NCBI GenBank assembly: GCA_032718475.1
Contig: JAUCBJ010001865.1
Coordinates: 17,697 to 81,696, forward strand
Direction of reading: 5' to 3'
Length of the DNA: 64,000 bases
Source: Nemertoderma westbladi
Lineage: Eukaryota; Animalia; Xenacoelomorpha
The notes under the pieces are model-generated. The model worked only from the letters and a program-made list of their open reading frames with translations. It ran no database searches and had not been told where the DNA came from. Positions 16,916-40,400 of this stretch are shown one piece after another. The first letter of the stretch is position 1; each line of letters starts with the position of its first letter. The translations under genes and the position numbers were made by a program.

Positions 16916-17224
16916 TATATCAATTTGGTGTTATGGCCAGCTCTAGTTTAACCAGGGCAAGTCTATATACAAGCATAATAATATTATATAAAGCAAAAAA
17001 GTTGGCCAGAATGTAATTATGCTAAGTAATATAATTCAATATTATATATACATTATTATTATTACTATTACGTTTTTCATTAATTTAATTAAATTTTTCT
17101 ATAGAATTATATTCCCTAAATGCCGTGGATTTTCAAAATTTTATTTTATTCGAATTAACTTGTTAAAAGATTACTTTGAGTCCTCATTTGTATTGCTATT
17201 TCTATTTGTACGCCTATTATTCAA

Positions 17225-17313
17225 GTGGTTCAGTAGCTCAGTCGGTAGAGCGTTGGAAATTATATATGTAGTAGGTATTGAGTTCGAATCCTAGTAAGTG
17301 CGAATTATTTTTT
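17225..17313 (+). promoter_or_regulatory. tRNA-like Pol III cassette inside the LTR (also at ~33978-34066)
   Basis: A box TAGCTCAGTCGGTAGAGCG, B box GAGTTCGAATCC, T6 run at ~17308-17313. Confidence 0.6.
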
Positions 17314-17520
17314 GTGCAGAATTTCAACTCATTTAAATTGACCGCTACAAATTAAATTGCATTTGTCTGTACCTAGATTAGCCAATGAGACTGTAGTTAT
17401 TAGATTGTAACCAATGTCGTGCAAATTATATATTAGCTGGACCAATAGCTATCTTTAAAAACCTGTTAGAACCTATAGAACAATCGAGAATTTTCTCGAT
17501 TGATTGCGGCACAAATTTGG

Positions 17521-17648
17521 TATATGAAGGTGCGATTTGTTCATTAGTTATCTAATCAATCACTCACTTATCTTCACTCTCTCTTAACTACTTCTATTCA
17601 GAATACATTGTTTATTGTATTATAGTTATTGTTTGATTTTGTAATAAA
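17521..17648 (+). promoter_or_regulatory. Putative LTR TATA/Inr and poly(A) signal
   Basis: TATATGAAG (TATATAAAG in the 3' LTR) ~25 nt before TTAGTT; AATAAA at 17643-17648; a second TATAAA/TTAGTC pair lies at ~18756-18795. Confidence 0.4.
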
Positions 17649-19830
17649 AGTTAGAAATACTTGTCACATCAGCCTTTTCTATCTGTTTTACCATGATTCA
17701 CTACGGTGAACACTCTTAGGAACAGGATGGCCGGATAGAGATCGGGCCGCAGCAATGAACGGGAACATCAAGGGAATGTAGACAGGAGACAACCCGCAAT
17801 ACCACCTTAGTTATTCGCCCATCGCCTGAAAGGTTAGACAGCGTTCGACGCCTTGCTACCTAAGCGTAAGACCAAAGATCAAAGGTAGAAGTAGTGACAC
17901 GCTGTAAGCCTAAAATTACATCTTAGGGACTGTACTGTCTTAATTCAGGAAAAAACCACAGTAGACCTTCACATTCCTACGGGGGGGGGGGGGGGGAGAG
18001 CGCAGGCAGAGATACTAGTACGCAGATAGGACGTAGGCACACCGGTACGAAGCATACACATTGGTAGGGTGCAGCAAACTGTACGCCTAACTCTTGCTAA
18101 GTGCAGGTGCGTCTGTGACTATTTGTAGTACAACGGTGTCCATTGCATTAGAACTTGTAGGCTAGGAGGGTTGCTGTGTTTCACCTGAATTAGGATTGTA
18201 CCGTTCAGGCGGTAGGGCAGTTTACGACTAGGCGCAAATAAATCGAGGCTATTAGGGATATACTAACATCTACCGTGTCCCCGCCAACGTCCTGATAGGA
18301 AGTTACCCAGCCTACCTAGGTGACTAAAATTCTAGATAGGACGCCAGGATAGCTATTAGTAACAGTACGCCTACTGTAGTAAACTAACACATTTCTTCTT
18401 AGTATTAGGGACCTGGTAAATTAAAAATTGCCGAATTCTGGGCGTAGCATTAACCTTATGCCTGAATTTGAGTCCTGGAAATACGCAAGAGGGGAAGGAA
18501 CCTTATTATTCGTGAGTATTGGACCTACAAGTTGCAAAATTAGAATATTCGTAAAATGCACACCGTACCCAGTAATTATATATGTGAAGGAGCAAAACTG
18601 CTTTGACTGTTCAGAATTAACACACGCGCGTTAGAAATTATTTACACCTCAAAATATATAAAAATTAACTTTCGTCCTTACTGTGCTTTGCCCGCTAGTT
18701 AGACATCTCCAAATCTCTGCCTCTGTACCTAGCTAGCGTCCCTTTTGCCCAACCATATAAATCACACCGCGGCAAAGTATACGAGCCCTTTAGTCCGTCA
18801 GTGAGTCAGCCTGATTTTAGGATTCGCTGCGCGGGATTTTGTTTTATCGAAGTTTGTCTGCTCATAGACTGTTTTCTGCCTCACCGGTTATAAGAGATCG
18901 ATACTGCAATATATTCGCTTACTTAGAGTTTACTGTTTTGGTGAGAAGGTCGGATTTATGATTTGATTCACAAACTTTACAGTAGGATATTGCAGGTATT
19001 GTTACCGTCTCTTCGAATAGTAGGAATGTGTTTTACTGAACTACGGTTCGGTAGGACTAAAGTTATTTGAAAATTTTGTATTTTGAGGTAAAAGTTTATA
19101 TTTGATTAGCTAAGTGCTAATTTTTTGAAATAAAATTTGATTTGAACCGCGTGTAAAATATTTTTGGAATTGAATACCGGTGTTTAAAAGGGTTTAAATA
19201 CCATATTGTACCGGTACAAAATTTTCGTAAAAGTAAAACCTAACTCTTTTGTTTTTCAGGATTCAGAACTCATTTCTAGACTGTAACGGGAGCAAGACCG
19301 TGTTTAGCAAGTTTGGGAGATAGATAACCCAACAACTTTGGTTGGGAAAATCGCGCTTCGTCCGCAACGCTGAAAACGGAAAGGTTCACGTCCGGTTTGT
19401 ATCTGGGAATCTGTTTTTCTGGAGAATTATTGGAGTGGGTGAGTTTGAAAAGTTGCATAAATAAGTTAGGCATTACCGTATTAGTTAAAATTATTGTGGG
19501 TTCCACTGTCTCAAGTATTTATGCATTCCGTACGATTTCTTTGTTCATTGCTGAATTAGTCCGTATTATTGTATTTAATTTACCTTTTGATAACGCATAT
19601 CGTTATCCGATTTATTTGTTATAAAATTGGCCGCTAGGCTAATTTTATTATATACTTATTCCGTGACATTTATTTGCTGTAAAATTGGCCGCATAGGCTA
19701 ATTTTATCCATCTGCTATAAAATCGGCCGGTAGGCTAATTTTATATGACTGTAATTAGTACCGTTTAGATATAAATACGGTAAACTTGATACTTTGACAC
19801 TCACATTTTACTTGACTTACAACTACCGAA

Positions 19831-21282
19831 ATGAGTGACAAACAAGACTATACGAAAAATACACAAACCGACTATGACTCATGTGACAGAGATAAGTCAG
19901 CAGCGGAAGAACAACAGGGGAAGACTCGCGAGCCTACCGAACCTACACCGTGTGCGTCACCAGTACATCCAACGGGAGTACCGGATGCCGTAGTACGAGG
20001 CAACGGCAGGACCGAGGACTTTCTAACTGTTCCGCAACCTAGATACAGGGAAACGGAGATGGTAAGTTCAGTAGGAAGCCAGGAGAGTGTGGTTAGAAGC
20101 GTCGGCGGATACATGGCGCATATTACCAGGAGTATTGGAGAAGGCCAACGCATATTAGACGAGTTGACCGCTCCGATGTCTCGGTTTGAGTTCTACACCC
20201 TCCAGGTTAGAGTACAAAGTAGAGTACATAAGTCCGTAGATAACCTAATTGGTCTACAAGATCTAGCTAGACAGAGACAGGACATGGATACTCAACTTAG
20301 AATCCTCGAGAAACTAATGATCGCTAGAGAGAAACTGATTCAGTTTAAGTCGACGATTAGGCAGATACAACAGGAACAAGCGGACCAGTTGTTAGGTGAG
20401 TCAGTTTCGGACGAATTATTGCAGCCCGAGGAAGAACAGGAACTGTACCGACTAGATGGACAATTAAAACACCTGACGGACCACTTACGTATGTGCGGCG
20501 AGGATGTCGGAGATTGGGAAACCGTGCCGGAGGCTACGAGGGAAACTTCACTCGCACAAATCGAATCGGCACCGGGAATACTAAATCAACCATTGGTAAG
20601 TATTCGTAGCGAAATCTGCGAGGGAAGTATGGTCACGTCAGAAGTTGCTCGACAACAACAAGAATTCTACCGACAACGACGAGAAATGGAGGAACAAGCT
20701 CAACTTCTAGTGATGCAGGCAGCAGTAGAGGAAGAGAAGCTACGCGTTGCGAATGTAGCGAGAATCTCTCATCTACAGGAACAAGCTGAATTAGAAGCAG
20801 CTGAAGTAGAAAGGTTAGAGGTAGACATTGCCCAACAAACGGCAGCGGTTGATTTAGCGCGACGAAACGCAGCGGCCGAGTTAGAGCGACAAACGGCAGC
20901 GGCGGAATTAGAGCGACAAACGGCAGCGGCGGAATTAGAGCGAGAAAGGTTAGTTTCGGAAGCACGGGCCGAAATGAAAACACGGCAAATAAAAGCTCAA
21001 TCCGCTATACGACAAGTGGAGTTTGAGGCGCAACGACAACAAACGGAACAACGAGAGAAGACAGCTAAACTTCATTTCGAACTCGAGAAGAAGGCGAGAG
21101 AATTAGCCGAAGCCAAGGAAAATCTGGATCTTCTAGCCCGCGATAGATCGATGAGATCTCGTGACGGACATGATTTGGACCAGTTAGAGGTAAGACATCG
21201 CCAAATTCAGGAACGGAAGAAGGAAGGAAGCGTAGGAGCACCCGGACGGGAACGACAATTAGTAAAAGACTTGTGTCAATGA
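19831..21282 (+). CDS. BEL/Pao gag N-terminal region (coiled-coil rich)
   Basis: 483-aa ORF from ATG, E/Q/R/A-rich heptads, directly upstream of the gag core; not in frame with downstream ORFs. Confidence 0.65.
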   Translation: MSDKQDYTKNTQTDYDSCDRDKSAAEEQQGKTREPTEPTPCASPVHPTGVPDAVVRGNGRTEDFLTVPQPRYRETEMVSSVGSQESVVRSVGGYMAHITRSIGEGQRILDELTAPMSRFEFYTLQVRVQSRVHKSVDNLIGLQDLARQRQDMDTQLRILEKLMIAREKLIQFKSTIRQIQQEQADQLLGESVSDELLQPEEEQELYRLDGQLKHLTDHLRMCGEDVGDWETVPEATRETSLAQIESAPGILNQPLVSIRSEICEGSMVTSEVARQQQEFYRQRREMEEQAQLLVMQAAVEEEKLRVANVARISHLQEQAELEAAEVERLEVDIAQQTAAVDLARRNAAAELERQTAAAELERQTAAAELERERLVSEARAEMKTRQIKAQSAIRQVEFEAQRQQTEQREKTAKLHFELEKKARELAEAKENLDLLARDRSMRSRDGHDLDQLEVRHRQIQERKKEGSVGAPGRERQLVKDLCQ

Positions 21283-21920
21283 TTCCACAAGTAACTCCTA
21301 TGTTTGCACCAATTATGACTAAGAAACCTGTTTCGATTGCGGGTAGTAGTGATATTTCTCCTATCCATGGTGCGACGGAACACAGGTTGGTTATTCCGGA
21401 CAAATTCATACCGTCAAGAGCAACGTCGTCGCCTATTTTGAAAGTCAAGGTAAGTAACCCACCGATTACAGATCGTAGTAGTTTGTTGACTGGACCTGCA
21501 CTACTGACGACAAAACAGGTGAGTCCACCTTTGACACCTAAACCGGTTACGCACTACGAATACCCAATGACGTTTCGACCTACAAGGCCAGTTCAGTTTA
21601 CATCGCAATCTACGACTTCGAGGAAGACTTGTGAGCCTACCGAACAACGGAGACCAGTGGATACGCGACCGTTCAACCAGTTTACATCGCAATCTACGAC
21701 TTCGAGGAAGACTTGTGAGCCTACCGAACAACGGAGACCAGTGGACGATGTTCCGAAACAAACATTAGAATTCATACGACGCAACGGACGCGAGCACTTC
21801 GACCACCATATCCAGATGATAGTAGTACTTCGAGCGAATCGGATTACCCGAAACGCGAGGTATTTAGAACAGGGGCGGCCGATGAATATAAACGCGAGCG
21901 TTCAGACAACTCCTTTGTAG
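21273..21920 (+). CDS. P/T/S-rich gag linker segment (frameshifted relative to neighbours)
   Basis: Overlaps both flanking frames; contains an 84-bp-period direct duplication (21594-21745). Confidence 0.45.
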   Translation: MSMIPQVTPMFAPIMTKKPVSIAGSSDISPIHGATEHRLVIPDKFIPSRATSSPILKVKVSNPPITDRSSLLTGPALLTTKQVSPPLTPKPVTHYEYPMTFRPTRPVQFTSQSTTSRKTCEPTEQRRPVDTRPFNQFTSQSTTSRKTCEPTEQRRPVDDVPKQTLEFIRRNGREHFDHHIQMIVVLRANRITRNARYLEQGRPMNINASVQTTPL

Positions 21921-22021
21921 ACAATCCTCCACAGAATACACCAACACAGAAGGCGTTACAACCAACGGACGCAATCAGTACACAACAGTTCGCCGACATC
22001 CTGCGACCAGTTGTTAACAAG

Positions 22022-25000
22022 TTGGCTCAGATCGAGGAGCGTCTGGAGGAAGTTCAAACCGATAGTTCGAGGAACACTGAATTCGAACACAATAGACACC
22101 CGAAGGAACCACAAAGACCGGTACCTTCAAAACACACATCGTATCAGGGAAAAGCGCCAAGAAGGGAGAACATCAACCAGATTACCAACCAAGGACGCGA
22201 AACTCTGAACGTTGCCGAGGAGATAGCGAAATTCGCAGCTAGACAAGGACTACCGGTGCAACAACCACCTAAGTTTTCCGGTAGCTCAAAACACTGGCAC
22301 ACTTTCGTAGACTATATCGAATCTCAGATCGCCGTGTGCGCTTTTACATCACGGGAGAAGTTTAATTACCTGCTTCAAACATTGTCGGGAGAACCTAAAC
22401 GTTTGGCGGAGACCTTCGTTGGTGTACCGGACGCCTTCGAACTAGCGTACGATCGTTTAACTTCGATCTACGGAGGTACAGTCAGCATGGCCAGGTCAGT
22501 GATAGAGGAACTCTGTAAGGGAGGGGCTATTACTAAACCCGTCGACTTATTGAAACTGGCTGACGAAATAAAGAACGCTATCACTACTTTGAGATCCATT
22601 GGACAACTTGACTACGGGAATACCCCTACAGTCCTATTAAAGATCATAGGACGACTCCACCATCGACTTCGTCGGGAGTGGAGGAAGATTGAATACCAGC
22701 GGGAAGAGCGGGGTGGATTCTTAAAACTGGAAGATGTGTACCTTTTGATATCCAGGGAAGCAGTGGTAGAAACTCGATCCAACTACACTGACCAGCACAT
22801 CGTAGCAGAAGGAATCACCTTGCCATCCTCAAACCGACAAAAACCCCAGACAACATCCACCAAGACGGCCACTTACGCCACATCGACGGAATCACGACAA
22901 TTCTCGGACGGTAGTAGGGTATCTGCGCCCATTGGGATAAAACAGACTAGACAGCAACTCAGTGCAGACTTCAGCGGCTGCCAATACTGCGAGCATTTAG
23001 GCAAGCGGTATATCGGTCACAAGTTGAGAGGTTGTCGACAGTTTCGCGAGTTAAACTCGGAAGAACGACGGCTGCAGATACGGCCATTGGACTCTTGTTG
23101 GCGGTGTACGCGACACGGACACGTCCGCAAAGATTGCCCAAATACCGACACTTGTCCATCCTGTGGACGCAACCATGACGGTCTGCTCCACACAGACAGC
23201 CACACGCCGACAAAACGCTTCGCCAGGGAACACCCGGAAGCAGCAGCGAAATGTAATACGGCCTACAAGAATCAAGAATCGAAAACGACTCCAACTTTCG
23301 TGACACATATTAAGGATTGCTTCTCAGAACAATCCGGATCGTCGGACGAAGAGTCAGAAGACGACGACGTATATTCCGATGGAGACGAACAACCATCGAT
23401 CGCGCTTCTGACGACTGACCAACTAAAGGGATTCAGCGTAATTCCGATTAAGATTACTGGCACAAAAGGGAGCAAGAGAATCTACGCTATCCTGGATTCA
23501 GCCTCATCTCACAGCTACGTGGATGAGCAGATAGCTGATGTAGTGACGGATCTCAGACAAGGTAAGCGCGTCAGTTACACCGTAAGTAGTATGCACGGAC
23601 AACGTGCAATACCAGTGACACGAGTTAAGTTGGACTTAGACACTCTTCTTCCAAAATCGCAACACAGCGAAAAGGAGAGGTCTTTGTTACCCTTTAAGGA
23701 TTTGACTTTTGCGGCCACCAAGGACTTTAGTAACCTACTAGGTCCTGTCCCAGAACAATCCTTGGAGGACCGTAAGTATTTCAGACACCTTGGTGTACCT
23801 GAATGTCCTGTCAATTATAGATCGGTAGCCATGCTGATCGGGACAGACCAATTCAACCTACATCAAGTGTGGGAAACCAGACCATCGGCAGTCGTAGCGG
23901 GAAACGCATACGCCTGTAGAACGCCGATAGGGTGGTATACTCGAGCGCCTGTGCGCACACTGGACATAAGTGACGAGGAAGACGATGTACAAAGTACATG
24001 TAGTTTATTAACTACAAATTCAATTCATTCCTTTTCACACGACGTGGACCATACTACCTTACATACAAAACATGACAGACGTGTAACTAGTATGATAAGT
24101 CACAAGGAGCAGCTAATCCACCAGGTGAGTTTAGAACTTGGGGAGAAGACGAGTCAGCCAGAGATTCCATCGACGACAGATGATAACGCCGGAAGGCTTG
24201 CGAGTCTACCTACACCAATAACCTCAACAATGCCCGTCGATATCGATGATGACGCGTTGAGAAATCATCAAGTGGAACAAGCTGTATTGGACAAAGAATT
24301 AACGGAGAAGACTATCAGGTGGTTAGAACAAGATACAGCTGAACCTGGTAGCTACGAACCATGTATGTCGGAACAGGAGAAACAATCTTTGAAGATCATG
24401 GAAGATACTATCCGCCAGACGAAAGACGGACATTATGAGGTAGGGATGTTATGGCGTAGCCAAAGTCCTAAACTCATAAATAACTATCCACTAGCTTTAA
24501 GACGTTTACACTCGATACGACAACGTCTATTAAAGGACGAGAAAGCCCATCTGCAGTATAACACTCAGATGGAGACGTATTTGTCCAAGGGATACGCTAT
24601 CCGAATGACTAACCCAGAGATAGTAACTGACCAGACATACTACTTGCCACATCATTTCGTGAGACACCCCGACAAACCAGACAAAGTACGTGTAGTCAAT
24701 GACTATGCGGCTCTGTTTGAGGGAATGTCCCTCAATAGCGAGTTGATGGATGGACCAAACATGAATAATTATCTTATGGGGGTGATTATGCGCTTCCGTC
24801 AGCGTCAAGTAGCCTTTACTTGCGACGTCGAAGCTATGTTTCACCAAGTGAGAGCGTTAGAGCAAGACAGAGACAGTTTGAGGTTCCTCTGGTATCCGGA
24901 AGGAGACTTAAGTCTACCACCGGCGACTTACCAAATGCAAGTTCGCGTTTTCGGTGCCAGAGACAGCCCAAACTGTACAATGTATGCCCTAAAGCAAGCC

Positions 25001-28000
25001 GCTAGGGATCAGAAACACCTGTATGACCCAGAGATAATTAAGATTGTGGAACGTGACTTTTACGTCGACGACGGTTTACAGAGTTGCGACACAGTAGAAC
25101 GTGCTACAACAGTAGCACATCAATTACGGGACTGCTTAGCGGGCGGAGGTTTTAACCTCACCAAATTCGCCTCAAACAGTGCCGAATTAGTAGACTCATT
25201 CGGAACGACTGAGCGTGGAGGTGGTGACATAGACCTAGAGTTCGAACCACTACCGACGACCAAGGTGTTGGGGCTCTTTTGGGACCCAAACACGGACAAC
25301 TTTCGAGTGAAGGTAAGACTGGACAGTCAAGAAAACACACTGACAAAGAGATCATGCTTGTCAAAATTGAGCCGATTGTTCGATCCATTAGGATTCATCA
25401 GTCCAATAATACTGCAAGCCCGCATTTATATGCGCAGTATTTGGAAGGATGGACTGACATGGGACGAGCCGATCTCATCAGACCAAGTGGACTTATGGAA
25501 GACCTGGGAGGCAGAATTATCTTCGCTAGAGGATTATTCCATACCCAGAGTCTACTTTCCATTACAAACAACATTTCCTGACAGCTTGGAATTACACTGT
25601 TTTTCCGACGCCAGTGACAACGGTTTTGGTGTGGCAGCGTACTTGCGCAGACAAGTAGACTCAGAAGAATTCGATGTTTCGCTCATTACTTCTAAGGCAA
25701 AAACAATGCCTACTAAGTATATGACGACACCACGAGCTGAGCTACAAGCCGCAACCCTGTCAACCACCATCGTGAACCTTATACAGACGGAACTACAGTC
25801 AAGTTTACAGATATTTTATTGGACTGACGCGATGTTGGTTTTATTTTACATAAACAACGACACACTTGAATTCAAGACATTCGTAGCTAACCGTCGCGCA
25901 GAAATTCTAGACCGTTCAATAAAGGAAGATTGGCGACATTGTCCCGGACCACAAAACCCAGCCGATATTGCGTCGCGAGGAATGATGCCTGAGGAATTCT
26001 GTAAACCGGAGAACAAAGAATTTTGGCAACACGGACCCCAATTCTTGCAGAAATCGACACAAGATTGGCCACCGTTATACGACAGCAAGTCTAACACCAT
26101 CCCTAAAGACGCGGAAATTAAAAAACCAAAAAAGGGGAAGGCAAAGAAAAAGACGACGGCGGCTAAACTCAAGAAAAAACCGAAGGCGAAATGGAAAGAT
26201 ATAACTTCAAAGGTCAAGAACGGAAGACTTGCGAGCCTTTCTACACCAGACATATCGCCAGACATATCGCCAGACGGTCAAACAGACACGTTACTAGACG
26301 GTCAACCAGACGTTTTGCCAGACATGTCACAAAATGTTCTACCAGACACTAGTGACATATTGACAAATAGTAAAGCCGCAGTTTCCCTATTGGAGCGGCC
26401 TTGTATTGACAAACTACCAATTTTGACACACTTGAGCAACCATAAGCACGGTGAAACCTCATGTATTACAGATGTGGGTAGTACCTACGCTAATGTAAAT
26501 ACAGGTGTTACTCTGCGCTCAAGAGACATACCAAACTTGCAACCTATGGTGAGACCCGGGATTAATATCGGCAGAAAATTAAGTTTACCGAAACCCACTG
26601 ACCCCATAGAGTTCAAACCACCATTAACGATCGACTTACAAAGTACTGACAATCAAGGTATGAAGACGAAGAAGGACAAATTACTTGTAGACCCGGACGG
26701 ATCAACAGTCAACAAGGGAATACTTACCGGCGGACCCGTGGGCCCTTCTAGTAAATCAAAACCTTCCAAATTCTTTGACTTACCTGATGACGTCACAAAT
26801 ACTCACGTCGACCGTATTGTAAACTTAACAGACTCTTGGACAAACGCTTGCCGAAAATTAGCGTGGATTGTACGTTTTGTACAATACGTTAAAGGCAAAC
26901 GAGACTTTACACGTCGACTTACATTGACTGAGATTGACAGGTGTGAGATTAAATTAATTCGCCATTACCAACTGCGATATTTCGCGCGCGAATTCACATC
27001 TATAAATCAAGGTCAACCAATCAAGTCGTCACCAATATTGAGTTGGAGTCCGATAATTTATAATGGCTTAATTTGTCATAAATCTCGGCTTCAGAACATT
27101 GACTTTAACACAAACTTTAGATACCCAATAATAATACCACAGCATCACGAACTACAATGTGCAATGATACTGGACGCACATTTACATCTAAAACACGCTG
27201 GAAGACACCACTGTCTTTCCTACTTACGTACAAGATTTGTATTAATTAGACCCAGTAAAGCGTTAAGTTCAGTGACACGTACGTGTATTATTTGTAAAAA
27301 GGTACATTCTAGAATAGGTACCCAAGAAATGAGTGAACTTCCACAAGCACGACTTCAAGCATTCAGACCACCTTTTACAGAGACTGGAATTGATTGCTTT
27401 GGTCCCATACATACGAAACGTGGACGTATACTAGTAAAACGCTGGGGACTGATTTTCACATGTATGTCCAGTAGGGCAGTTCATATTGAACGTGTGATGG
27501 ATCTTTCCACCAACGCGTTTATACTAGCATTGCGGCGATTTATCGCTAGACGCGGACTAGTGAAATGCTTGTACTCAGACCAAGGGATAAACTTTGTTGG
27601 TGCTCGAAATGAGATTGCTAGAGCCTTTAAGAAATTAGATCATGATCAAATCTCAAACGAACTACGTCCTCACAAGATTGTTTGGAAGTTTAATCCTCCA
27701 GATAGTCCATGGAGAGGCGGAGTCTGGGAGAGATTGATTAGATCTATAAAGACAGCCATGGCAAAGGTCATTCCAGTAAACCACATATTGACAGACGACC
27801 AACTGACAACACTGTTTGTTGAAATCGAGGCAATACTAAATACTAGACCAATAGTATTAGTACCCGATGACAAACAATCTCAGTTTGCTTTGACACCGGC
27901 ACACCTGCTTATGCAGGCACCGACCACATTGACGCCTATTTCTATTCCAATAGAAGGCGATAGCTACGGTAGAAAAGCGTGGAAAATCACGCAACTACTA

Positions 28001-28315
28001 GCTAACAAATTCTGGGAAATATGGCAAAACCATTATTTGCCCTCTATTTCTGCCAGAACAAACTGGTAAAATAACACCCGCGCATTAAAGCCGGGAGATC
28101 ACGTGCTGTTAGCGGAAGTGAATCTAAAAAGACGCTTCTGGATAACAGGTGTAATTTTAGCCACACATCCATCTATGGATGGAGTGACAAGAACTGTAAC
28201 GGTACGGACAATTGACGGTCGTACAGTAGACAGACCGACTCAACGTCTCGTACTTCTTGAAGAGACTCGTAACGAGTCTGGAGACTACAAATCTCCAACT
28301 AATATTAGTAAATAA
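22022..28315 (+). CDS. BEL/Pao gag-pol polyprotein (gag core, Zn knuckles, protease, RT, RNase H, integrase); in-frame TAA at 28067-28069
   Basis: PPKFSG (DUF1759-like), three Cys/His knuckles, YAILDSASSHS (protease), YYLPHH/FYVDD (RT), HCFSDAS (RNase H), GIDCFGP/SDQGINF/GGVWERLI (integrase); the C-terminal tail LKPGDHVLL..W..G.I...HP..DGVTR.V.V continues in frame past the stop. Confidence 0.93.
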
Positions 28316-28976: not shown

Positions 28977-29516
28977 ATGGAGAAAGGGATACAAGGAGAG
29001 CCGAGATGGGGATATGATATCCAAGAGGAGGCAGCAGCGCCATTCGAAAGATTTGGAGCCAAGGACTACACTATATTTGGTATAAAAGAATTATCAGAAA
29101 GTACTGCGAAACTCGCGAGAACTAAATATGACTCAAATGTATTAAAGAGAAGACAAAATGCATTAAACGAAAGAATCGAAAGTTTGCGCAAAACCTTCAA
29201 CGAACTTTACCCGTACGACGCTTTGTGTGATACGGGAGACATTAGCAAAGACCCCGATACTGAAATTAGTCGTTTGTATCATACCATGCAATACCTGAAG
29301 GCGCACGAACCTATGCCCGCGGTAAGAGATGAATTTGATGGAATGCATCTTTACAGACGAACTCGAGGGGACGATAGAGAAACCAAGGAAGCATTTTCAG
29401 TTTATAAACTTTATTATCAATGCGGTTCTTGTATGCGTGAACAACGAAATGCGATTCCGATGCGTTATTCCGATACGATCGCATTTCGTTGTTCACGCAT
29501 ACAAGAACCGCATTGA
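28977..29516 (+). CDS. Accessory ORF A of the retrotransposon (unknown function; 3' end runs into the hairpin)
   Basis: 179-aa ATG ORF downstream of pol with a CxxC motif; the last ~12 codons derive from the inverted copy. Confidence 0.5.
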   Translation: MEKGIQGEPRWGYDIQEEAAAPFERFGAKDYTIFGIKELSESTAKLARTKYDSNVLKRRQNALNERIESLRKTFNELYPYDALCDTGDISKDPDTEISRLYHTMQYLKAHEPMPAVRDEFDGMHLYRRTRGDDRETKEAFSVYKLYYQCGSCMREQRNAIPMRYSDTIAFRCSRIQEPH

Positions 29517-29726
29517 TAATAAAGTTTATAAACTGAAAATGCTTCCTTGGTTTCTCTATCGTCCCCTCGAGTTCGTCTGTAAAGATGCATTCCATCAAAT
29601 TCATCTCTTACCGCGGGCATAGGTTCGTGCGCCTTCAGGTATTGCATGGTATGATACAAACGACTAATTTCAGTATCGGGGTCTTTGCTAATGTCTCCCG
29701 TATCACACAAAGCGTCGTACGGGTAA
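29207..29726. repeat. 249-bp inverted repeat with 22-nt loop
   Basis: 29207-29455 is the reverse complement of 29478-29726; the ORF track shows identical peptides on both strands. Confidence 0.95.
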
Positions 29727-29748
29727 TAAGGAAAATCCCGAACCGATA

Positions 29749-32700
29749 TTGGCGAGGTGTTCGAACCATCAACAACTACGCTACCAGGAAGGAGGGTATC
29801 CTTTATCGAATCCATATCATTCGTTTGCTATGACCGGACCAAAGGCGGGAGAAACTGTCGTTTACCCACCTAAGGTTGTTGAACCCGATGTATTTGAACT
29901 TACGCTGGAAGAGGCGAATCAGTCAACCCGCGAAAAGAAAGAAGCTCTTAGCCTATACAGAGCCTACAAGGCTTTCGAGAAAGGTGAGATGGAAGAATGG
30001 GGCGGAAGACTCGCGAGCCTACCTTACCATTGGACGTCACACGATCAAACTCCAGCTAAGGAGATGACACCGGAAGTTTTCGAGAGCATAAACTTTGCTC
30101 AAAACGTTATTCAGAGACTACAGATTGCATCCCCGGAGAGGACAAGAGAAATGCAACCATATAGTACTTCAACTACGAAACCATTGAGTACGACACTCAA
30201 TTTTCCTATTAGTATACCAGTCCGACAGGATACGACGTACGAAATACCCATCGTGGATCATCCAGAAATCATTTCAAACTTGGAGTTTCTTCCTGCAGTT
30301 GTTTTCAGCGATATGAGTAAGATATATGATTTACGTAGACATATTACTCAAAAGGTCGTGTACAACGTTCCACCTCATATTCAAGACTTTAAGGAACTGG
30401 ATAGAGCTGGTGCCGATATAGCTCCGAGTAATTTGAAAGGATATTTAACCAAGACGATTCGTTTATGGATTGGAACCGGAACCTTCGAGTCGGATACAGA
30501 TATTGCCGCGGATTGGCGAGGTAAGGTTATTCGTTTCGAAGATGATAAGGACATAGAGAAGATTTGGCAACCTTCGGAAGAATTGTTGGATGAATGGAAT
30601 AGGACGTTTAGATCGTTTCAGGAAAATGGTTACATGTTTTACGATAACGAGGGCGGCAGTCATCAACAGAGTTTGACTTCTAAGACTATACAAATTAGAG
30701 CGGCGGACGGAGTCCTGCACGTTTTCAGTAGACAGAGGAGCGACAAACGAATGCCGATACCTCCAGCGAATACAAAGCGACACCATCTTATCACTGACAT
30801 AGTAAAGAAGATGGACCAAGCTTGTAATATCGACGCTAGAATGCTACCGAAGATGGTAAGAAACATGATTTTAGATAAAACTGTTGTAAAGATTGGATCA
30901 GGAGTAAGGGAGGACTTAATTAGCGACTTCGCCGGCATGACGGACAGCGATGACCGACTACCGACACCTTACGTCGACACTCGACCTCTTATTTTGTGGT
31001 CTATAGAACAGGGATATTTTCGTGAGTATAATACTCAGAAGACTGGAACTGGATACATTTCCTACCTGTTATTCAATTGGGATTATAAGGAAAGTAAGAG
31101 AACCAAGTATATTGAGACTTATGGAGAAGGTGATACTCCAGATATGAGTGAGTTTGAATCACAGCTTAAATGGAGAGGATGCGTGTATTGGGCTATTACG
31201 TCACCTCCAAGAGCGGTCTTACAATATTATTTAGCAATAGAGTCGTCAGTGAATGTTTGCCTAATCGCCGACATTGTGTCTCGGACTCTCAAAAGACATC
31301 CACTTTGTCTCGGAGAAGATCATACGTTCTACATGGAAGGGAGAATTCATACCGACGTGTTTAGACGATTCCTTGAACCCTTCTACAACTCCGACGCTCA
31401 GTGTAATGCCTTTACTCGAGCAGGATTTAGTATATTTCGAGACGTGTATCTTCGCTGTGCGGGATCTCTTATCGAAAGACCATCTATGTTTACATTGTTA
31501 CCCTATGAAGGAGAACGTATCGTGGAGATTACGGATGAATCACGGCAGACGCGCGCGCCTATCGGTCACCTTGGTGATGATTTCGAAGTAACTACTACGA
31601 TCACTGACGATCCTTTAGAGGAACTTCTTGAGATAGAAAGGAACCTCCCGAAGAAATCTCAGACGGAGATTCGACAACTTGAAGCAACAGATGCTATAGT
31701 TTGTATACAACCTTCAGAAACCTACCAACCCATAGATCCAGATGATTACGATTATAGTGTGGGAGGAAGCGCTCGACCGATTGGAGATCTTATATACGAA
31801 CGAGTGTGGTACCCTGCCAATACGATGTGTGGTAAATGTGGCGTCGCTGGACATCATATGACCAAGTGCAGTGGAAAGCACATTACTACGACTCAGCTAA
31901 TCTGTGGATGGTGTGGAGATCAAGGGTCTCATACCTTTTATACTTGCTGGAGATTTATGGCTCAATGTACTTATTGCAATATAAAGGGACATCGAGCATC
32001 TGAATGCCAACTAAGAGACATACCTTATGAACACGAATCTGTAAAACTCGTGAGAAAATTATTCGATGAGTGGGAAGATTTAGCCGACGAACATGTATCG
32101 GCACAAAGAAGACGGTTTCCGATGAGGGCGCATCTTGGATTTTGGGCGGTAAATCCCCAAACGATGATGTCGGAAGGATACATCTCCGCTATGCCCCAAT
32201 ATGACGAACTTATCGAGGTAGTCGATATTTTGCCCCACGACAGTGGATTCCGAGTAGTGCGCGAGTATCTGTTACAGATTCACCCGGATAACAAAAACAC
32301 GTGGAATTTTCAGAAAGTCGTTAATCGCATCACGTATGGTGAATTCGATCGTTTCCGAACTGAAAAGCGGAATAAAGGAGCTTGGTTAACCGTCGCATGG
32401 GCGTACCGAGCCGCGTTTTACCACAAACGTATACGAGCGAGCGTATTCGAGGAAGAGGAGGTCCTAGAGGCGACAAATATACCAGCCACTCCGGTTGCGC
32501 CGTCTGCACGTCACCCTCGGGAGGACGGACAGGGTAGGATCATACGGGTCCAGAAAGTGGGCCAACAGTTAAAGAAGTCTATTAATATAGAAGAACGCAA
32601 GGGAGCTGAGCCGACCATTCGAATTACTCGGGATACGGTATCGCTTCCTAGAGAACCAATAGGAGGATCGGGACATACACCAGCTGATCAAAGGGGGCGC

Positions 32701-32763
32701 AAGCTACTCTTGGGTCTGCGTCGTCCGCTTCCCGCGCGTTCCCAGACGTTCTACCAACTGTAG
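29749..32763 (+). CDS. Accessory ORF B: DEDDy 3'-5' exonuclease-like domain plus three CCHC zinc knuckles (first ATG at 29830)
   Basis: ExoI-like FYDNEG, TIQI, ExoII-like LDKTVVKIGSGVREDL, YVDTR, ExoIII-like LQYYLAIE; CGKCGVAGHHMTKC, CGWCGDQGSHTFYTC, CTYCNIKGHRASEC; no TM or signal peptide evident. Confidence 0.75.
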   Translation: MARCSNHQQLRYQEGGYPLSNPYHSFAMTGPKAGETVVYPPKVVEPDVFELTLEEANQSTREKKEALSLYRAYKAFEKGEMEEWGGRLASLPYHWTSHDQTPAKEMTPEVFESINFAQNVIQRLQIASPERTREMQPYSTSTTKPLSTTLNFPISIPVRQDTTYEIPIVDHPEIISNLEFLPAVVFSDMSKIYDLRRHITQKVVYNVPPHIQDFKELDRAGADIAPSNLKGYLTKTIRLWIGTGTFESDTDIAADWRGKVIRFEDDKDIEKIWQPSEELLDEWNRTFRSFQENGYMFYDNEGGSHQQSLTSKTIQIRAADGVLHVFSRQRSDKRMPIPPANTKRHHLITDIVKKMDQACNIDARMLPKMVRNMILDKTVVKIGSGVREDLISDFAGMTDSDDRLPTPYVDTRPLILWSIEQGYFREYNTQKTGTGYISYLLFNWDYKESKRTKYIETYGEGDTPDMSEFESQLKWRGCVYWAITSPPRAVLQYYLAIESSVNVCLIADIVSRTLKRHPLCLGEDHTFYMEGRIHTDVFRRFLEPFYNSDAQCNAFTRAGFSIFRDVYLRCAGSLIERPSMFTLLPYEGERIVEITDESRQTRAPIGHLGDDFEVTTTITDDPLEELLEIERNLPKKSQTEIRQLEATDAIVCIQPSETYQPIDPDDYDYSVGGSARPIGDLIYERVWYPANTMCGKCGVAGHHMTKCSGKHITTTQLICGWCGDQGSHTFYTCWRFMAQCTYCNIKGHRASECQLRDIPYEHESVKLVRKLFDEWEDLADEHVSAQRRRFPMRAHLGFWAVNPQTMMSEGYISAMPQYDELIEVVDILPHDSGFRVVREYLLQIHPDNKNTWNFQKVVNRITYGEFDRFRTEKRNKGAWLTVAWAYRAAFYHKRIRASVFEEEEVLEATNIPATPVAPSARHPREDGQGRIIRVQKVGQQLKKSINIEERKGAEPTIRITRDTVSLPREPIGGSGHTPADQRGRKLLLGLRRPLPARSQTFYQL

Positions 32764-33852
32764 TGACAACTGATCGGTCACGAGGAATCGGTCGAGGTTT
32801 TGGGATGCCAAATAGACGAATTTGCGAGGAAATAGTCGCACCGTCTCTCAACGTCCAAACGAAACCAGTGACTCGCCCCACGAGTCCCATATCGCGAGCA
32901 AAGTCACCTGTGCGCAGTTTTCGAGGACGCGGCAGGGCTCGATCAACTAAGCGATAAAAGGGAGGGCAAGGGTGGACGGAAGACTCGTGAGCCTTTCTTA
33001 TGATTTTGTGATTTATTTGAATTTATATTTATATTTGTGTTTATTCCGAACTTAAGCAATTTGTATTGTTCCGAATTTATGAAATTTAGAAAGTTTATAT
33101 TTAGAAGGGACTTATATTTGAAAGATTTATGTTTCATATTTGAGATGCAAAGGAGTTTATATTATTCTAAACTTATGCAGTTTATATTTATATTTAGTAA
33201 AGATTTATATTTGTAAGAATTTATATTTTATATTTGTAATTATTCCGAACTTATGCAATTTATATTGTTCCGAATACTATGCAATTTATATCTTATAAGC
33301 AGTATTTGTATTTACAGTGAAATAGAAAGTAAGAGTAGATGGAAGACTCGTGTGCCTTTCTTATAGTTTCATTTGTAAAGTGTTATATTTTGTATTTAGA
33401 AAGTTTTATAGTTAGAAAGTTTTGTACTTAGAAAGACTCATATTTGTAATTATTCCGAACTTATGCAATCTACATTTAGGCACGAAAGTATTTGTAATTA
33501 TTTGAATTTATGCAATATTTGAGATGCAATAGTAGATGGAAGACTCGCGAGCCTTTCTTATGATTTTCATTTATTTGTATTTGTAATTGTTTGAATTTAT
33601 GCAATATTGAGATGCAATAGATTTATATTGGTGAATTTAATTTAGATTTATATTGTACTTACTCAGTAAAGCCTTAACTACGTAAAGTTTGAATTTGTAA
33701 TTATTTTGTATCGAATCATTATGTAGAAAGGAAGTATTGTTTGAAATTTAATTGTAAATATGTAAGTACGCCCTAAGTATTCTATAGTTTGATTGATTAT
33801 TGGTGAAAACCGTATATTTTATGCACGATAATATCCTGTATTCATGGAGCGG

Positions 33853-35778
33853 TATAGAATTATATTCCCTAAATGCCGTGGATTTTCAAAATTTTATTTT
33901 ATTCGAATTAACTTGTTAAAAGATTACTTTGAGTCCTCATTTGTATTGCTATTTCTATTTGTACGCCTATTATTCAAGTGGTTCAGTAGCTCAGTCGGTA
34001 GAGCGTTGGAAATTATATATGTAGTAGGTATTGAGTTCGAATCCTAGTAAGTGCGAATTATTTTTTGTGCAGAATTTCAACTCATTTAAATTGACCGCTA
34101 CAAATTAAATTGCATTTGTCTGTACCTAGATTAGCCAATGAGACTGTAGTTATTAGATTGTAACCAATGTCGTGCAAATTATATATTAGCTGGACCAATA
34201 GCTATCTTTAAAAACCTGTTAGAACCTATAGAACAATCGAGAATTTTCTCGATTGATTGCGGCACAAATTTGGTATATAAAGGTGCGATTTGTTCATTAG
34301 TTATCTAATCAATCACTCACTTATCTTCACTCTCTCTTAACTACTTCTATTCAGAATACATTGTTTATTGTATTATAGTTATTGTTTGATTTTGTAATAA
34401 AAGTTAGAAATACTTGTCACATCAGCCTTTTCTATCTGTTTTACCATGATTCACTACGGTGAACACTCTTAGGAACAGGATGGCCGGCTAGAGATCGGGC
34501 CGCAGCAATGAACGGGAACATCAAGGGAATGTAGACAGGAGACAACCCGCAATACCACCTTAGTTATTCGCCCATCGCCTGAAAGGTTAGACAGCGTTTG
34601 ACGCCTTGCTACCTAAGCGTAAGACCAAAGATCAAAGGTAGAAGTAGTGACACGCTGTAAGCCTAAAATTACATCTTAGGGACTGTACTGTCTTAATTCA
34701 GGAAAAAACCACAGTAGACCTTCACATTCCTACGGGGGGGGGGGGGGGGGGGGGGAGAGCGCAGGCAGAGATACTAGTACGCAGATAGGACGTAGGCACA
34801 CCGGTACGAAGCATACACATTGGTAGGGTGCAGCAAACTGTACGCCTAACTCTTGCTAAGTGCAGGTGCGTCTGTGACTATTTGTAGTACAACGGTGTCC
34901 ATTGCATTAGAACTTGTAGGCTAGGAGGGTTGCTGTGTTTCACCTGAATTAGGATTGTACCGTTCAGGCGGTAGGGCAGTTTACTACTAGGCGCAAATAA
35001 ATCGAGGCTATTAGGGATATACTAACATCTACCGTGTCCCCGCCAACGTCCTGATAGGAAGTTACCCAGCCTACCTAGGTGACTAAAATTCTAGATAGGA
35101 CGCCAGGATAGCTATTAGTAACAGTACGCCTACTGTAGTAAACTAACACATTTCTTCTTAGTATTAGGGACCTGGTAAATTAAAAATTGCCGAATTCTGG
35201 GCGTAGCATTAACCTTATGCCTGAATTTGAGTCCTGGAAATACGCAAGAGGGGAAGGAACCTTATTATTCGTGAGTATTGGACCTACAAGTTGCAAAATT
35301 AGAATATTCGTAAAATGCACACCGTACCCAGTAATTATATATGTGAAGGAGCAAAACTGCTTTGACTGTTCAGAATTAACACACGCGCGTTAGAAATTAT
35401 TTACACCTCAAAATATATAAAAATTAACTTTCGTCCTTACTGTGCTTTGCCCGCTAGTTAGACATCTCCAAATCTCTGCCTCTGTACCTAGCTAGCGTCC
35501 CTTTTGCCCAACCATATAAATCACACCGCGGCAAAGTATACGAGCCCTTTAGTCCGTCAGTGAGTCAGCCTGATTTTAGGATTCGCTGCGCGGGATTTTG
35601 TTTTATCGAAGTTTGTCTGCTCGTAGACTGTTTTCTGCCTCACCGGTTATAAGAGATCGATACTGCAATATATTCGCTTACTTAGAGTTTACTGTTTTGG
35701 TGAGAAGGTCGGATTTATGATTTGATTCACAAACTTTACAGTAGGATATTGCAGGTATTGTTACCGTCTCTTCGAATA
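33853..35778 (+). repeat. 3' LTR (1926 bp)
   Basis: Direct repeat of the 5' LTR; preceded by short purine-rich GGAGCGG (PPT-like); followed by TSD TTTTC. Confidence 0.95.
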
Positions 35779-36451
35779 TTTTCATAATTTAGTCGTACTT
35801 AATGTATGTTTCTTAATTACTAACAACTGATATAAAACAAATAATAATTACTGGCAAAATTACAAAAATAAAAGAAAACATGATGATTCCTGCCGGGCAT
35901 TTTGCTTTCTTTCCTTAGGTAAAACAAAAAAGAGGCAGATAGGGGGCTGGGGTTGGGGGGTTGGTTGACTGTGGATGGAAACAAAATTCCTTCCGTTCCG
36001 GGGTAAAATTGACTAAAATAACAAGTGATTACTCCAAAAATGTAACAGTAACATGTTACAACGTGCCATGCAACTGTAACCTGCTCCTTTCCCTTAATTT
36101 ATAAATTAGTAACATTTAGACGATATATTAATTCGCCAAGATAGGATTTGTGCCTCTCCTGTCTCAAAATAAGACTCCCTATTATGATGAATAATTACTT
36201 TAAAACATCAGACAGTATAATATTTTGATGGTGACATTGTGATATTAATGGTTAATATTATATAACAAATTGATGATTGAAATTGATTGATTGAAATTGA
36301 TTGATTGATAGATCTACAATAAAGTTTATAGCACTTTCTATAATTCTGGTTTTTGATATCAGATGATCGAATATTTCAATAATTTCATACAATATAAGTA
36401 ACAATTGATTTTTAGATCTTATGTAGTATTATCATTTCAATAATAATCAAT

Positions 36452-37106
36452 ACTACTACTACTAAGTCGAGCGAACTCGGACAGCGGAAATGAGATCCTT
36501 CCAGGCTTCCCGATTCTCCAACTACTACTACTAGGTCGAGCGAATTCGGACAGCGGAAATGAGATCCTTCCAGGATTCCCGATTCTCCAACTACTACTAC
36601 TAGGTCGAGCGAATTCGGACAGCGGAAATGAGATCCTTCCAGGATTCCCGATTCTCCAACTACTACTACTAAGTCGAGCGAACTCGGACAGCGGAAATGA
36701 GATCCTTCCAGGCTTCCCGATTCTCCAACTACTACTACTAGGTCGAGCGAACTCGGACAGTGGAAATGAGATCCTTCCAGGCTTCCCGATTCTCCATAGT
36801 TGTCGCAATTTCGTTTCTCCCAAGTTCAGTATCCCTTTCAAGTTGATCTATATATGTTATAGCCGGTCGTCCACGACTACGCTTTCCATGAGTTGGTTGC
36901 CAGAAAAGTAGATCTGGTATGACCTCGTCTTTACTTCGCCAGCAGTGCCCACTGAATCTTAATCTGCGTTCACGGAGGGTGGTTGATACAGGTGGTATTG
37001 TACCATAAAGCTCGGCGTTTGTAATGTGTTGTCCCCAGTTGATGTTTATGGCTGCCCTTAGTAGTCTTGTGTAGCAGCCATCAATTAATTCGTAGTTCAA
37101 GTGATT
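36452..37106 (-). mobile_element. Short 5'-truncated copy of the same RTE-like LINE with its 69-bp 3' end tandemly repeated
   Basis: 36728-37106 matches ~1275-1650 in reverse complement; four extra 69-bp terminal units at 36452-36727. Confidence 0.92.
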
Positions 37107-37435
37107 GTATCCTTGTATCCTATCTTTGGTTTTTGTGTCTATTGTTATGATTTTACTCTACAGTAGCGTTGTTAATATTTCGCATTAACAATAAAATTCA
37201 AGCATTAACACGTTGCTACGGAAACTGGTGCCGTTTCCAGGTAGTTTTTTTGGTAATATCAGAGGCGTTGTCGAATGAAAGTTCTCTTGTTTGTACTTAA
37301 CATGTGTACAAATTAATGAACTTGACACCTTAACAATGAACCTTGACAACTTAACAAATGTACGATTATACAATTGTACGATTGTCAAATGTACGTATGA
37401 TCAGATTACCTGATTACCCAATGGGTGCATTGACA

Positions 37436-40400
37436 CTAGCTCCACTCATACTTACCGTAACTACCCAAGGAGTGGCCCAGCTCCCACTCAAACTTACCGT
37501 AACTACCCAAGGAGTGTCCCAGGCCAGCTCCCACTCATACTTACCGAACTACCCAAGGAGTGGTCCAGCTCCCACTCATACTTACCGGACTACCCAAGGA
37601 GTGGCCCAGCTCCCACTCATACTTACCTGACTACCCAAGGAGTGGTCCAGCTCCCACTCATACTTACCGGACTACCCAAGGAGTGGTCCAGCTCCCACTC
37701 ATACTTACCGGACTACCCAAGGAGTGGCCCAGCGCCCACTCATACTTACCGGACTACCCAAGGAGTGGCCCAGCGCCCACTCATACTTACCGTAACTACC
37801 CAAGGAGTGGCCCAGCTCCCACTCATACTTACCGGACTACCCAAGGAGTAGTCCAGCTCCCACTCATACTTACCGGACTACCCAAGGAGTGGCCCAGCGC
37901 CCACTCATACTTACCGGACTACCCAAGGAGTGGCCCAGCGCCCACTCATACTTAACTGGACTACCCAAGGAGTGGTCCCGCTCCCACTCATACTTACCGT
38001 AACTACCCAAGGAGTGGCCCAGCTCCCACTCATACTTACCGGACTACCCAAGGAGTGGTCCAGCTCCCACTCATACTTACCGGACTACCCAAGGAGTGGT
38101 CCAGCTCCCACTCATACTTAACTGGACTACCCAAGGAGTGGTCCCGCTCCCACTCACTCATACTTACCGGACTACCCAAGGAGTGGTCCAGCTCCCACTC
38201 ATACTTACCGGACTACCCAAGGAGTGGTCCAGCGCCCCCTCATACTTAACTGGACTACCCAAGGAGTGGTCCCGCTCCCACTCATACTTACCGGACTACC
38301 CAAGGAGTGGTCCAGCTCCCACTCATACTTACCGGACTACCCAAGGAGTGGCCCAGCGCCCACTCATACTTACCGGACTACCCAAGGAGTGGCCCAGCGC
38401 CCACTCATACTTACCGTAACTACCCAAGGAGTGGCCCAGCTCCCACTCATACTTACCGGACTACCCAAGGAGTGGCCCAGCGCCCACTCATACTTACCGG
38501 ACTACCCAAGGAGTGGCCCAGCGCCCACTCATACTTAACTGGACTACCCAAGGAGTGGTCCAGCTCCCACTCATACTTACCGGACTACCCAAGGAGTGGT
38601 CCAGCTCCCACTCATACTTACCGGACTACCCAAGGAGTGGCCCAGCTCCCACTCATACTTACCGGACTACCCAAGGAGTGGTCCAGCTCCCACTCATACT
38701 TACCGTAACTACCCAAGGAGTGGCCCAGCTCCCACTCAAACTTAACTGGACTACCCAAGGAGTGGCCCAGCTCCCACTCATAGTTACCGAACTACCCAAG
38801 GAGTGGCCCAGCGCCCACTCATACTTACCGGACTACCCAAGGAGTGGCCCAGCGCCCACTCATACTTACCGTAACTACCCAAGGAGTGGCCCAGCTCCCA
38901 CTCAAACTTAACTGGACTACCCAAGGAGTGGCCCAGCTCCCACTCATAGTTACCGAACTACCCAAGGAGTGGCCCAGCGCCCACTCATACTTACCGGACT
39001 ACCCAAGGAGTGGTCCAGCTCCCACTCATACTTACCGTAACTACCCAAGGAGTGGCCCAGCTCCCACTCAAACTTAACTGGACTACCCAAGGAGTGGCCC
39101 AGCTCCCACTCATAGTTACCGAACTACCCAAGGAGTGGCCCAGCGCCCACTCATACTTACTGTAACTACCCAAGGAGTGGCCCAGCTCCCACTCATACTT
39201 ACCGGACTACCCAAGGAGTGGCCCAGCGCCCACTCATACTTACCGGACTACCCAAGGAGTGGCCCAGCGCCCACTCATACTTACCGTAACTACCCAAGGA
39301 GTGGCCCAGCTCCCACTCATACTTACCGGACTACCCAAGGAGTGGTCCCGCTCCCACTCATACTTACCGGACTACCCAAGGAGTGGTCCAGCTCCCACTC
39401 ATACTTACCGGACTACCCAAGGAGTGGTCCAGCGCCCCCTCATACTTAACTGGACTACCCAAGGAGTGGTCCCGCTCCCACTCATACTTACCGGACTACC
39501 CAAGGAGTGGTCCAGCTCCCACTCATACTTACCGGACTACCCAAGGAGTGGCCCAGCGCCCACTCATACTTACCGGACTACCCAAGGAGTGGCCCAGCGC
39601 CCACTCATACTTACCGTAACTACCCAAGGAGTGGCCCAGCTCCCACTCATACTTACCGGACTACCCAAGGAGTGGTCCAGCTCCCACTCATACTTACCGG
39701 ACTACCCAAGGAGTGGCCCAGCTCCCACTCATACTTACCGGACTACCCAAGGAGTGGTCCAGCTCCCACTCATACTTACCGTAACTACCCAAGGAGTGGC
39801 CCAGCTCCCACTCAAACTTAACTGGACTACCCAAGGAGTGGCCCAGCTCCCACTCATAGTTACCGAACTACCCAAGGAGTGGCCCAGCGCCCACTCATAC
39901 TTACCTGACTACCCAAGGAGTGGCCCAGCGCCCACTCATACTTACCGTAACTACCCAAGGAGTGGCCCAGCTCCCACTCAAACTTAACTGGACTACCCAA
40001 GGAGTGGCCCAGCTCCCACTCATAGTTACCGAACTACCCAAGGAGTGGCCCAGCGCCCACTCATACTTACCGGACTACCCAAGGAGTGGTCCAGCTCCCA
40101 CTCATACTTACCGTAACTACCCAAGGAGTGGCCCAGCTCCCACTCAAACTTAACTGGACTACCCAAGGAGTGGCCCAGCTCCCACTCATAGTTACCGAAC
40201 TACCCAAGGAGTGGCCCAGCGCCCACTCATACTTACTGTAACTACCCAAGGAGTGGCCCAGCTCCCACTCATACTTACCGGACTACCCAAGGAGTGGCCC
40301 AGCGCCCACTCATACTTACCGGACTACCCAAGGAGTGGCCCAGCGCCCACTCATACTTACCGTAACTACCCAAGGAGTGGCCCAGCTCCCACTCATACTT

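Follow-up and report, generated by a model that had tools for sequence, protein, structure and literature searches.

A candidate exonuclease and zinc-knuckle accessory gene downstream of pol in a BEL/Pao-type retrotransposon of Nemertoderma westbladi

What might a retrotransposon gain from a long open reading frame (ORF) that sits in the place of env and does not look like env? The question arises from a 64,000-nucleotide stretch of Nemertoderma westbladi DNA (GenBank assembly GCA_032718475.1, contig JAUCBJ010001865.1, positions 17,697 to 81,696 of the forward strand), here called the window, whose own numbering is used throughout. It holds a BEL/Pao-type long terminal repeat (LTR) retrotransposon with a third ORF, ORF3, between pol and the 3′ LTR. 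An original prediction, made by a model from the letters alone, described ORF3 as a DEDDy exonuclease-like gene with three CCHC zinc knuckles. We tentatively favour reading ORF3 as a conserved BEL/Pao accessory gene, its product likely a 3′-5′ exoribonuclease with knuckles that would hold single-stranded RNA, serving in counter-defence.

ORF3 and its homologues

The features of ORF3 are these, with motif residues numbered from 29749:

28977..29516, forward strand: likely 5′ part of ORF3, from ATG 28977; ends after 179 amino acids in the window copy
29207..29726, unstranded: perfect inverted duplication, 249-bp arms (29207-29455 and 29478-29726) with a 22-nt spacer, splitting ORF3
29692..32763, forward strand: main frame of ORF3, 1023 codons between stops, with ATG 29830 as the first
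30586..31310, forward strand: exonuclease-like domain, apparently DEDDy-derived, 3′-5′
30643-30651, forward strand: putative ExoI, D299/E301
30913-30915, forward strand: putative ExoII, D389
31228-31242, forward strand: putative ExoIII, Y494...E498
31828..32007, forward strand: three CCHC zinc knuckles (motif), conserved in the homologues P0003 and P0004
32050..32270, forward strand: unnamed conserved C-terminal domain past the knuckles, common to all three proteins

The motifs on which the prediction was built, FYDNEG (30637-30654), LDKTVVKIGSGVREDL (30871-30918), YVDTR (30970-30984) and LQYYLAIE (31219-31242), lie exactly where it had placed them, and so do the knuckles, at 31828-31869 (C-x2-C-x4-H-x4-C), 31903-31947 (the x5 variant) and 31966-32007; Pfam zf-CCHC scores them at E 0.0026, under the Pfam cut-off. 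The position between pol and the 3′ LTR (33853-35778) was also right, as was an open frame of about 1000 amino acids, although its proposed start at 29749 has no ATG. No transmembrane segment is present in ORF3, again as foreseen, the best 19-residue Kyte-Doolittle window being 1.38, on the ExoIII helix. An env reading was rejected for want of a membrane segment and a second-gag reading for want of a capsid family, both also in view of the positive exonuclease match. The C-terminal domain has no Pfam family and no PDB match.

A phmmer search over 1.84 billion representatives returned four matches to ORF3, two of which (P0002 and P0005) were knuckle-only gag matches and were dropped. The other two, P0003 and P0004, come from ENA contigs of 7,460 and 11,302 bases, have pairwise E-values of 2e-12 and 8e-11, and share the whole ORF3 layout. 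At the level of sequence, this layout of exonuclease-like domain, knuckles and C-terminal domain is conserved among the three proteins. Word-indexed searches of 5.8 billion proteins, whose scope excluded longer fused forms, gave no ORF3 match; nor did ORF3-like matches turn up when loci of metagenome and viral contigs were scanned, or when phages and plasmids were searched with P0003 by tblastn.

Domain assignment

The exonuclease-like domain very probably has a DEDDy-type fold. A profile of the three sequences, compared by hhalign with 22 bacterial WRN-like PF01612 proteins, scored 55.7 (Prob 94.1%, E 1.3e-7) over an alignment running from ExoI past ExoII and across the helix that follows; the best of 150 column shuffles reached 21.5. 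The 22 proteins represent 22 of 27 loci; five longer, weaker ones were excluded, and gave the same result when added. The reverse hmmsearch put P0004 first, the window ORF second and P0003 third among 234 ORFs, with scores that shuffles reached 0, 0 and 1 times per 1000, respectively. A profile of the exonuclease-like segment alone, searched against 177,635 PDB sequences, had as its sole matches at E<=10 EXD2 (E 0.041) and WRN (E 0.21), while over 301 bacterial genomes it found weak matches in 15, the best being a 200-amino-acid PF01612 protein (E 0.013). For P0003 the top three Atlas clusters by features are PF01612 clusters (0.80-0.87), the best of them also having zf-CCHC in 61% of members, and 10/10 clusters in the structure rows carry PF01612, with template-modelling scores, taken by the shorter protein, of <=0.73; the neighbours also include EXD1. 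P0003's own model in the Atlas has a predicted local distance difference test score (pLDDT) of 0.44. A DEDDy-like assignment that had been made by eye is thereby supported.

Several results tell against the assignment. Pfam and PHROG scans of whole ORF3, its sub-domains and its homologues found no exonuclease family, the DNA_pol_A_exo1 type that the prediction had proposed as a check included, and AlphaFold, proposed likewise, gave a mean pLDDT of 32 and no usable fold, whether run on one sequence or on three. In the Atlas, every feature score is <0.9, and every structure row stays below the bar that the tool sets for naming. The shuffles, moreover, do not correct for the way in which the bacterial family was picked, as the best match of the three-sequence profile. 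A single-sequence PDB search with ORF3 gave chance matches only.

The missing Pfam match, the AlphaFold pLDDT of 32 and the mere two remote homologues are what would be expected if the motif match were coincidental and the fold another one, or if ORF3 were a neutral passenger. Agreement of three methods on PF01612 speaks against such an explanation, as do strong purifying selection and a dedicated splice acceptor (both described below), and we consider it very unlikely.

Selection among copies and damage in the window copy

The ORF3-bearing family is abundant in three studies, represented by runs X1, X3 and X4 under one organism label. Across 30560-31340, 34 sites differ in at least 10% of depth, and zero indels are listed. 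Twenty-five of these 34 sites in the ORF3 core are synonymous (binomial p<=2e-7), which gives a ratio of nonsynonymous to synonymous polymorphism (pN/pS) of 0.095-0.153, depending on transition weighting, as site counts of contigs against one reference with same-codon sites scored apart, and not as a codon-model estimate. The ORF3 core is under strong purifying selection, and D299, E301, D389, Y494 and E498 show zero amino-acid changes among copies. A test of selection across copies had been suggested with the prediction, together with the warning that ORF3 might be a one-off or neutral capture; the abundance of the family and the constraint on the core contradict such a capture. Tallies for pol (8 synonymous, 5 nonsynonymous) and ORF1 (7 and 7) are no fair control, because they come from the 40 rows listed among 1044. 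Gap-free contigs at ~81-84% identity keep the 30560-31340 region and represent older subfamilies, and domain-less deletion forms of the element are present at low depth. Purifying selection, a splice joint of its own and an abundant family together make it likely that ORF3 is a working accessory gene.

The window copy is broken. It had been called intact, wrongly: the 249-bp inverted duplication splits ORF3, and contigs of all three runs span the site without the duplication, one X4 contig of 1887 bases being gap-free on both sides of the break. Because contigs cross the break in this way, the ORF from ATG 28977 is likely the 5′ part of ORF3, and the "intact" ORF of about 1000 amino acids would then be the bigger fragment of a gene that has been broken. 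The inverted duplication may truly be present as a fold-back or may be an artefact of assembly. If the window copy moves at all, ORF3 would have to come from intact copies. A one-base indel near 32691 sets many copies apart from the window copy, so the last ~25 ORF3 codons may be peculiar to the latter. In transcripts of this copy, the perfect 249-bp hairpin would yield long double-stranded RNA, from which small RNAs that silence the family might arise. Rfam matches were discounted as artefacts of this perfect hairpin, far under gathering scores.

A splice joint for ORF3

The splice signals of interest are as follows:

19439..19444, forward strand: ORF3 splice donor GTGAGT, from the X4 contig joint
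28914..28945, forward strand: ORF3 splice acceptor, with branch CTAAC, pyrimidine tract and TAG; a 3-codon upstream ORF follows at 28951
19259..19260, forward strand: predicted acceptor in the 5′ leader, with branch CTAAC, pyrimidine tract and CAG; motif only

Among the 15 of 63 joints listed, one has GT..AG ends, joining the 5′ leader to 28946 in a single X4 contig. ATG 28977 starts 32 nt past the acceptor, after the 3-codon upstream ORF. The donor belongs to the class GTRAGT, found at 19 sites among 1006 GT in the element, and the acceptor is one of two that pass a strict filter among 1330 AG. The layout of donor and acceptor, as judged from these signals, is that of an env-style subgenomic message. 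From the joint it follows that a spliced form has existed, be it RNA or retro-copied DNA; expression level is a separate matter. Some weight is taken from this route by the joint being carried by one contig, with 29 letters on the short side and a likeness of 85%, from a run taken, as a guess, to be DNA, and by the acceptor filter having been fixed after the joint site was noticed. The uneven depth of X4, high near the 3′ end and low past the AATAAA of the LTR, is like that of poly(A) RNA; contig depth cannot prove expression, and this was not counted.

Catalytic motifs and function

All three proteins (window ORF, P0003 and P0004) have the same ExoI DxE and ExoII D, and the ExoI D-x-E aligns to the FDTE of the WRN-like set. 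The third motif reads Y-x3-E in the window protein and P0004 and Y-x3-D in P0003, whose W-x11-Y-x3-D has the spacing found in 22/22 bacterial proteins; from motif order and this spacing we infer the placement of ExoIII. By its motifs the ORF3 domain is classed as DEDDy-derived, not canonical DEDDy, and with its last Asp replaced by Glu it is, on balance, probably still catalytically active. The suggestion that ORF3 is a pseudo-nuclease was correct about the Glu and is itself unproven, because P0003 carries the canonical Asp, and the acidic residues of the motifs stay constant from copy to copy.

The favoured explanation would run as follows. The ORF3 message would be made by the env-like splice joint; its product would be a metal-dependent 3′-5′ exoribonuclease; single-stranded RNA tails would be gripped by its three zinc knuckles; and it would trim host small-RNA guides, or host-added tails on element RNA, as a counter-defence. 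That the substrate would be RNA is suggested by RNase D of Trypanosoma brucei (TbRND, PDB 7C42), in which CCHC fingers bind and select the uridines of the U-tail for the exonuclease (PMC7797062); a separately expressed protein of TbRND-like build would most plausibly act on RNA 3′ ends. Host small RNAs and element RNA tailed by the host would be the most obvious targets in such a counter-defence; host uridylation restricts LINE-1 (PMC6191937).

On the other side stand the following points. ExoIII alone aligns non-significantly (score 9.3, with shuffles up to 18.6), and its last acid is Glu in 2/3 proteins. The motifs of a DEDDy domain prove no catalysis, since Egalitarian retains all five DEDDy residues yet does without them (bioRxiv 10.1101/2025.08.03.668247), and the present data point to no particular substrate of ORF3. 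The case of Egalitarian also makes a serious rival of another reading, in which the exonuclease fold of ORF3 would be dispensable or without catalysis and would act, like Egalitarian, Exuperantia or EXD1, as an RNA-binding adaptor that would localise, package or shield element RNA. Glu at ExoIII in the window protein and P0004, long insertions ahead of ExoII and ExoIII, EXD1 among the Atlas neighbours of P0003 and the repeated shifts of Egl, Exu and Exd1 to binding roles (bioRxiv 10.1101/2025.08.03.668247) all agree with an adaptor, which would leave unexplained the invariance of the ExoI and ExoII residues in all three proteins, the ExoIII Asp kept by P0003 and the acidic nature of the altered residue; rotifer ORF3s with DEED, moreover, have been interpreted as possibly active (PMC5408684). 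We regard the adaptor as possible and somewhat unlikely.

Relation to known systems

DEDDy ORF3s of LTR elements were already published in 2017, in Juno and Vesta LTR elements of bdelloid rotifers, along with those of Athena/Terminon, where DEDD has become DEED (Rodriguez et al., 2017, PMC5408684), and two reviews restate them (PMC6431247, PMC5718144). The novelty implied in the original prediction was therefore too high, and the BEL/Pao host and the knuckle fusion are the variant. By published description, and not by sequence comparison, the Juno/Vesta ORF3s resemble the present one in being non-env, downstream of pol, of DEDDy type, without a transmembrane segment and with one Asp changed to Glu. 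The differences are several. Juno, Vesta and Athena are LTR lineages of their own and Penelope-like elements, whereas the host here is BEL/Pao; the acid changed is the third in the rotifer ORF3s (DEED) and the fourth here, where the third is Asp, so that this is not DEED; and ORF3 has tandem CCHC knuckles and an extra C-terminal domain, and has had its purifying selection measured, neither of which the available text of the rotifer report describes (PMC5408684).

The exonuclease and knuckle layout was called very unusual in the TbRND paper (PMC7797062), and TbRND (7c42) is the top PDB match of the full three-sequence profile (E 0.0048), a match that is knuckle-driven, the exonuclease segment contributing -2.0 bits. 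Both proteins have a 3′-5′ exonuclease domain, a linker and tandem CCHC fingers; TbRND, a cellular enzyme of mitochondria, has a short linker and four fingers, whereas ORF3 has three fingers, a long acidic linker and an extra domain. Because the exonuclease segments barely align, the likeness of layout may be convergent. With WRN-exo, EXD2 and bacterial PF01612 proteins ORF3 shares ExoI, later strands, the ExoII block 'LP..L..D..K.G....D' and the 'D' and 'G...L' motifs, and it differs from PF01612 of the WRN/EXD2 kind in its identity of ~20%, under Pfam detection, its two long insertions, its Glu at ExoIII, its fusion to knuckles and its carriage by a mobile element. The env-like ORF of Belpaoviridae (PMC8742986) is likened to ORF3 by its place after pol and the env-style splice joint; ORF3 differs in having no transmembrane segment, no envelope homology and an apparently enzyme-like fold.

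Our literature search found no exonuclease ORF in BEL/Pao elements and no knuckle fusion, in a scope that left aside subscription journals, Repbase, GyDB and supplements and in which the term 'BEL/Pao' was unsearchable as written. The term 'exonuclease' is absent from the available text of PMC3118150 and PMC2774666, and that of PMC3286476 holds nothing relevant.

The host element

The element is laid out as follows, in addition to ORF3:

17095..17099 and 35779-35783, unstranded: 5-bp target-site duplication, the same 5 bases outside both LTR ends
17100..19019, forward strand: 5′ LTR, 1.92 kb, with ends TA...TA, not TG...CA
19816..21282, forward strand: ORF1, 488 codons, charged and Gln/Glu/Ala-rich, with no Pfam family
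21719..28069, forward strand: gag-pol frame, with DUF1759, zf-CCHC, protease motif, reverse transcriptase (YVDD 25061), Peptidase_A17, integrase zinc domain and core, and the start of DUF5641
28067..28069, forward strand: in-frame stop, breaking DUF5641 (profile positions 2-31 before the stop, 34-94 after)
33853..35778, forward strand: 3′ LTR, with tRNA-like A/B boxes at 33987-34044, TATA-like at 34274 and AATAAA at 34396 (motif matches only)

Between its direct repeats (17100-19019 and 33853-35778) the element measures 18.7 kb. The two LTRs, of 1.92 kb each, are 99.4% identical, with five substitutions and one 6-base difference in the length of a G-run. Pfam recognises Peptidase_A17 (E 1.7e-42), DUF1759 (5.8e-11) and Integrase_H2C2 (0.0013) in the gag-pol frame, DUF5641 (7e-11) after the in-frame stop, and RVT_1 weakly (0.044). 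A gag knuckle is followed by the order protease, reverse transcriptase, RNase H and integrase, with Pao-type Pfam signatures; to judge by its domains, the frame 21719-28069 with its LTRs has the BEL/Pao signature, and the prediction of a BEL/Pao element is borne out by LTRs, target duplication and the Peptidase_A17/DUF1759/DUF5641 set. In the window copy the gag-pol frame is not continuous with ORF1, which likely encodes the N-terminal portion of gag.

Both the size and the LTRs exceed the range typical of Belpaoviridae, 4.2-10 kb with LTRs of 0.2-1.2 kb, a range that is descriptive and not defining (PMC8742986). A member of the family should have a primer-binding site of 18 nt for tRNA-Arg or tRNA-Gly and a polypurine tract; here no TGG primer-site start is found downstream of the 5′ LTR, and before the 3′ LTR there is a short purine-rich run only. 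The length and the missing standard primer site bear on a further explanation, namely that ORF3 acts inside the particle, the knuckles bringing the exonuclease to genomic RNA, where it would polish the 3′ ends of primer or complementary DNA, or proofread a long genome. Nidoviral ExoN has been tied to genome growth (PMC7968707), 40-kb Terminons also bear DEDDy ORFs, and one of the closest relatives with a solved structure is WRN, whose exonuclease acts on DNA (PMC5408684). This is unlikely, however: ORF3 is a separate gene outside pol with a splice joint of its own, packaging of its product is without support, and substitutions among copies are transition-rich and plentiful, with no hint of special fidelity, in a comparison that had no control family. 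A bolder form of the same idea, in which ORF3 would be a particle-borne proofreader or 3′-end editor, ExoN-like, that permits an RNA genome roughly double the size usual for BEL/Pao, and would with P0003 and P0004 form an unrecognised mobile exonuclease-knuckle family, seems to us quite improbable.

Some further observations concern the LTRs. Their TA...TA ends fall at 17100/19019 and 33853/35778, and within their first 550 bases are the TATA-like motif and AATAAA, from which U5 would be ~1.35 kb. One of the five LTR substitutions, at 17526, hits the TATA-like motif of the 5′ LTR. A tRNA-like A-box and B-box lie inside both LTRs (17234-17291 and 33987-34044), and an 11-mer ~15 nt past the 5′ LTR is complementary, one G-U pair included, to the beginning of the tRNA-like stretch, which could reflect self-priming or chance. 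ARAGORN finds no tRNA, and neither it nor Rfam calls anything at the tRNA-like stretch.

Other features of the window

Near the junction of ORF1 and gag-pol there is a tandem duplication of 84-bp period (21594-21745), overlapped by a 248-codon frame (21174-21920). The 3′ untranslated region (32950-33620) is AT-rich, with imperfect internal repeats, and comes in many different lengths from copy to copy. The element is flanked by large tandem arrays (37400-42100, 42150-52000, 15000-16100 and 36450-36800), one of them with a 39-bp period and ~250 copies; the element sits in satellite-rich DNA. A 359-bp repeat has inverted copies at 1291-1649 and 36728-37086, 97% identical, with a frame that by eye resembles the C-terminus of a LINE (long interspersed nuclear element) reverse transcriptase.

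Implications

To our knowledge, dedicated counter-silencing enzymes are poorly known in animal retrotransposons. The favoured reading of ORF3 as an accessory exoribonuclease would extend DEDDy exonuclease cargo to BEL/Pao elements and add the layout of exonuclease with knuckles. The 2017 rotifer report left open whether exonuclease ORF3s serve their elements (PMC5408684); the ORF3 described here likely works. As the domain occurs naturally with Asp and with Glu at its last acid, the isolated variants make directly testable whether it is a nuclease or an RNA clamp, and what its substrate would be.

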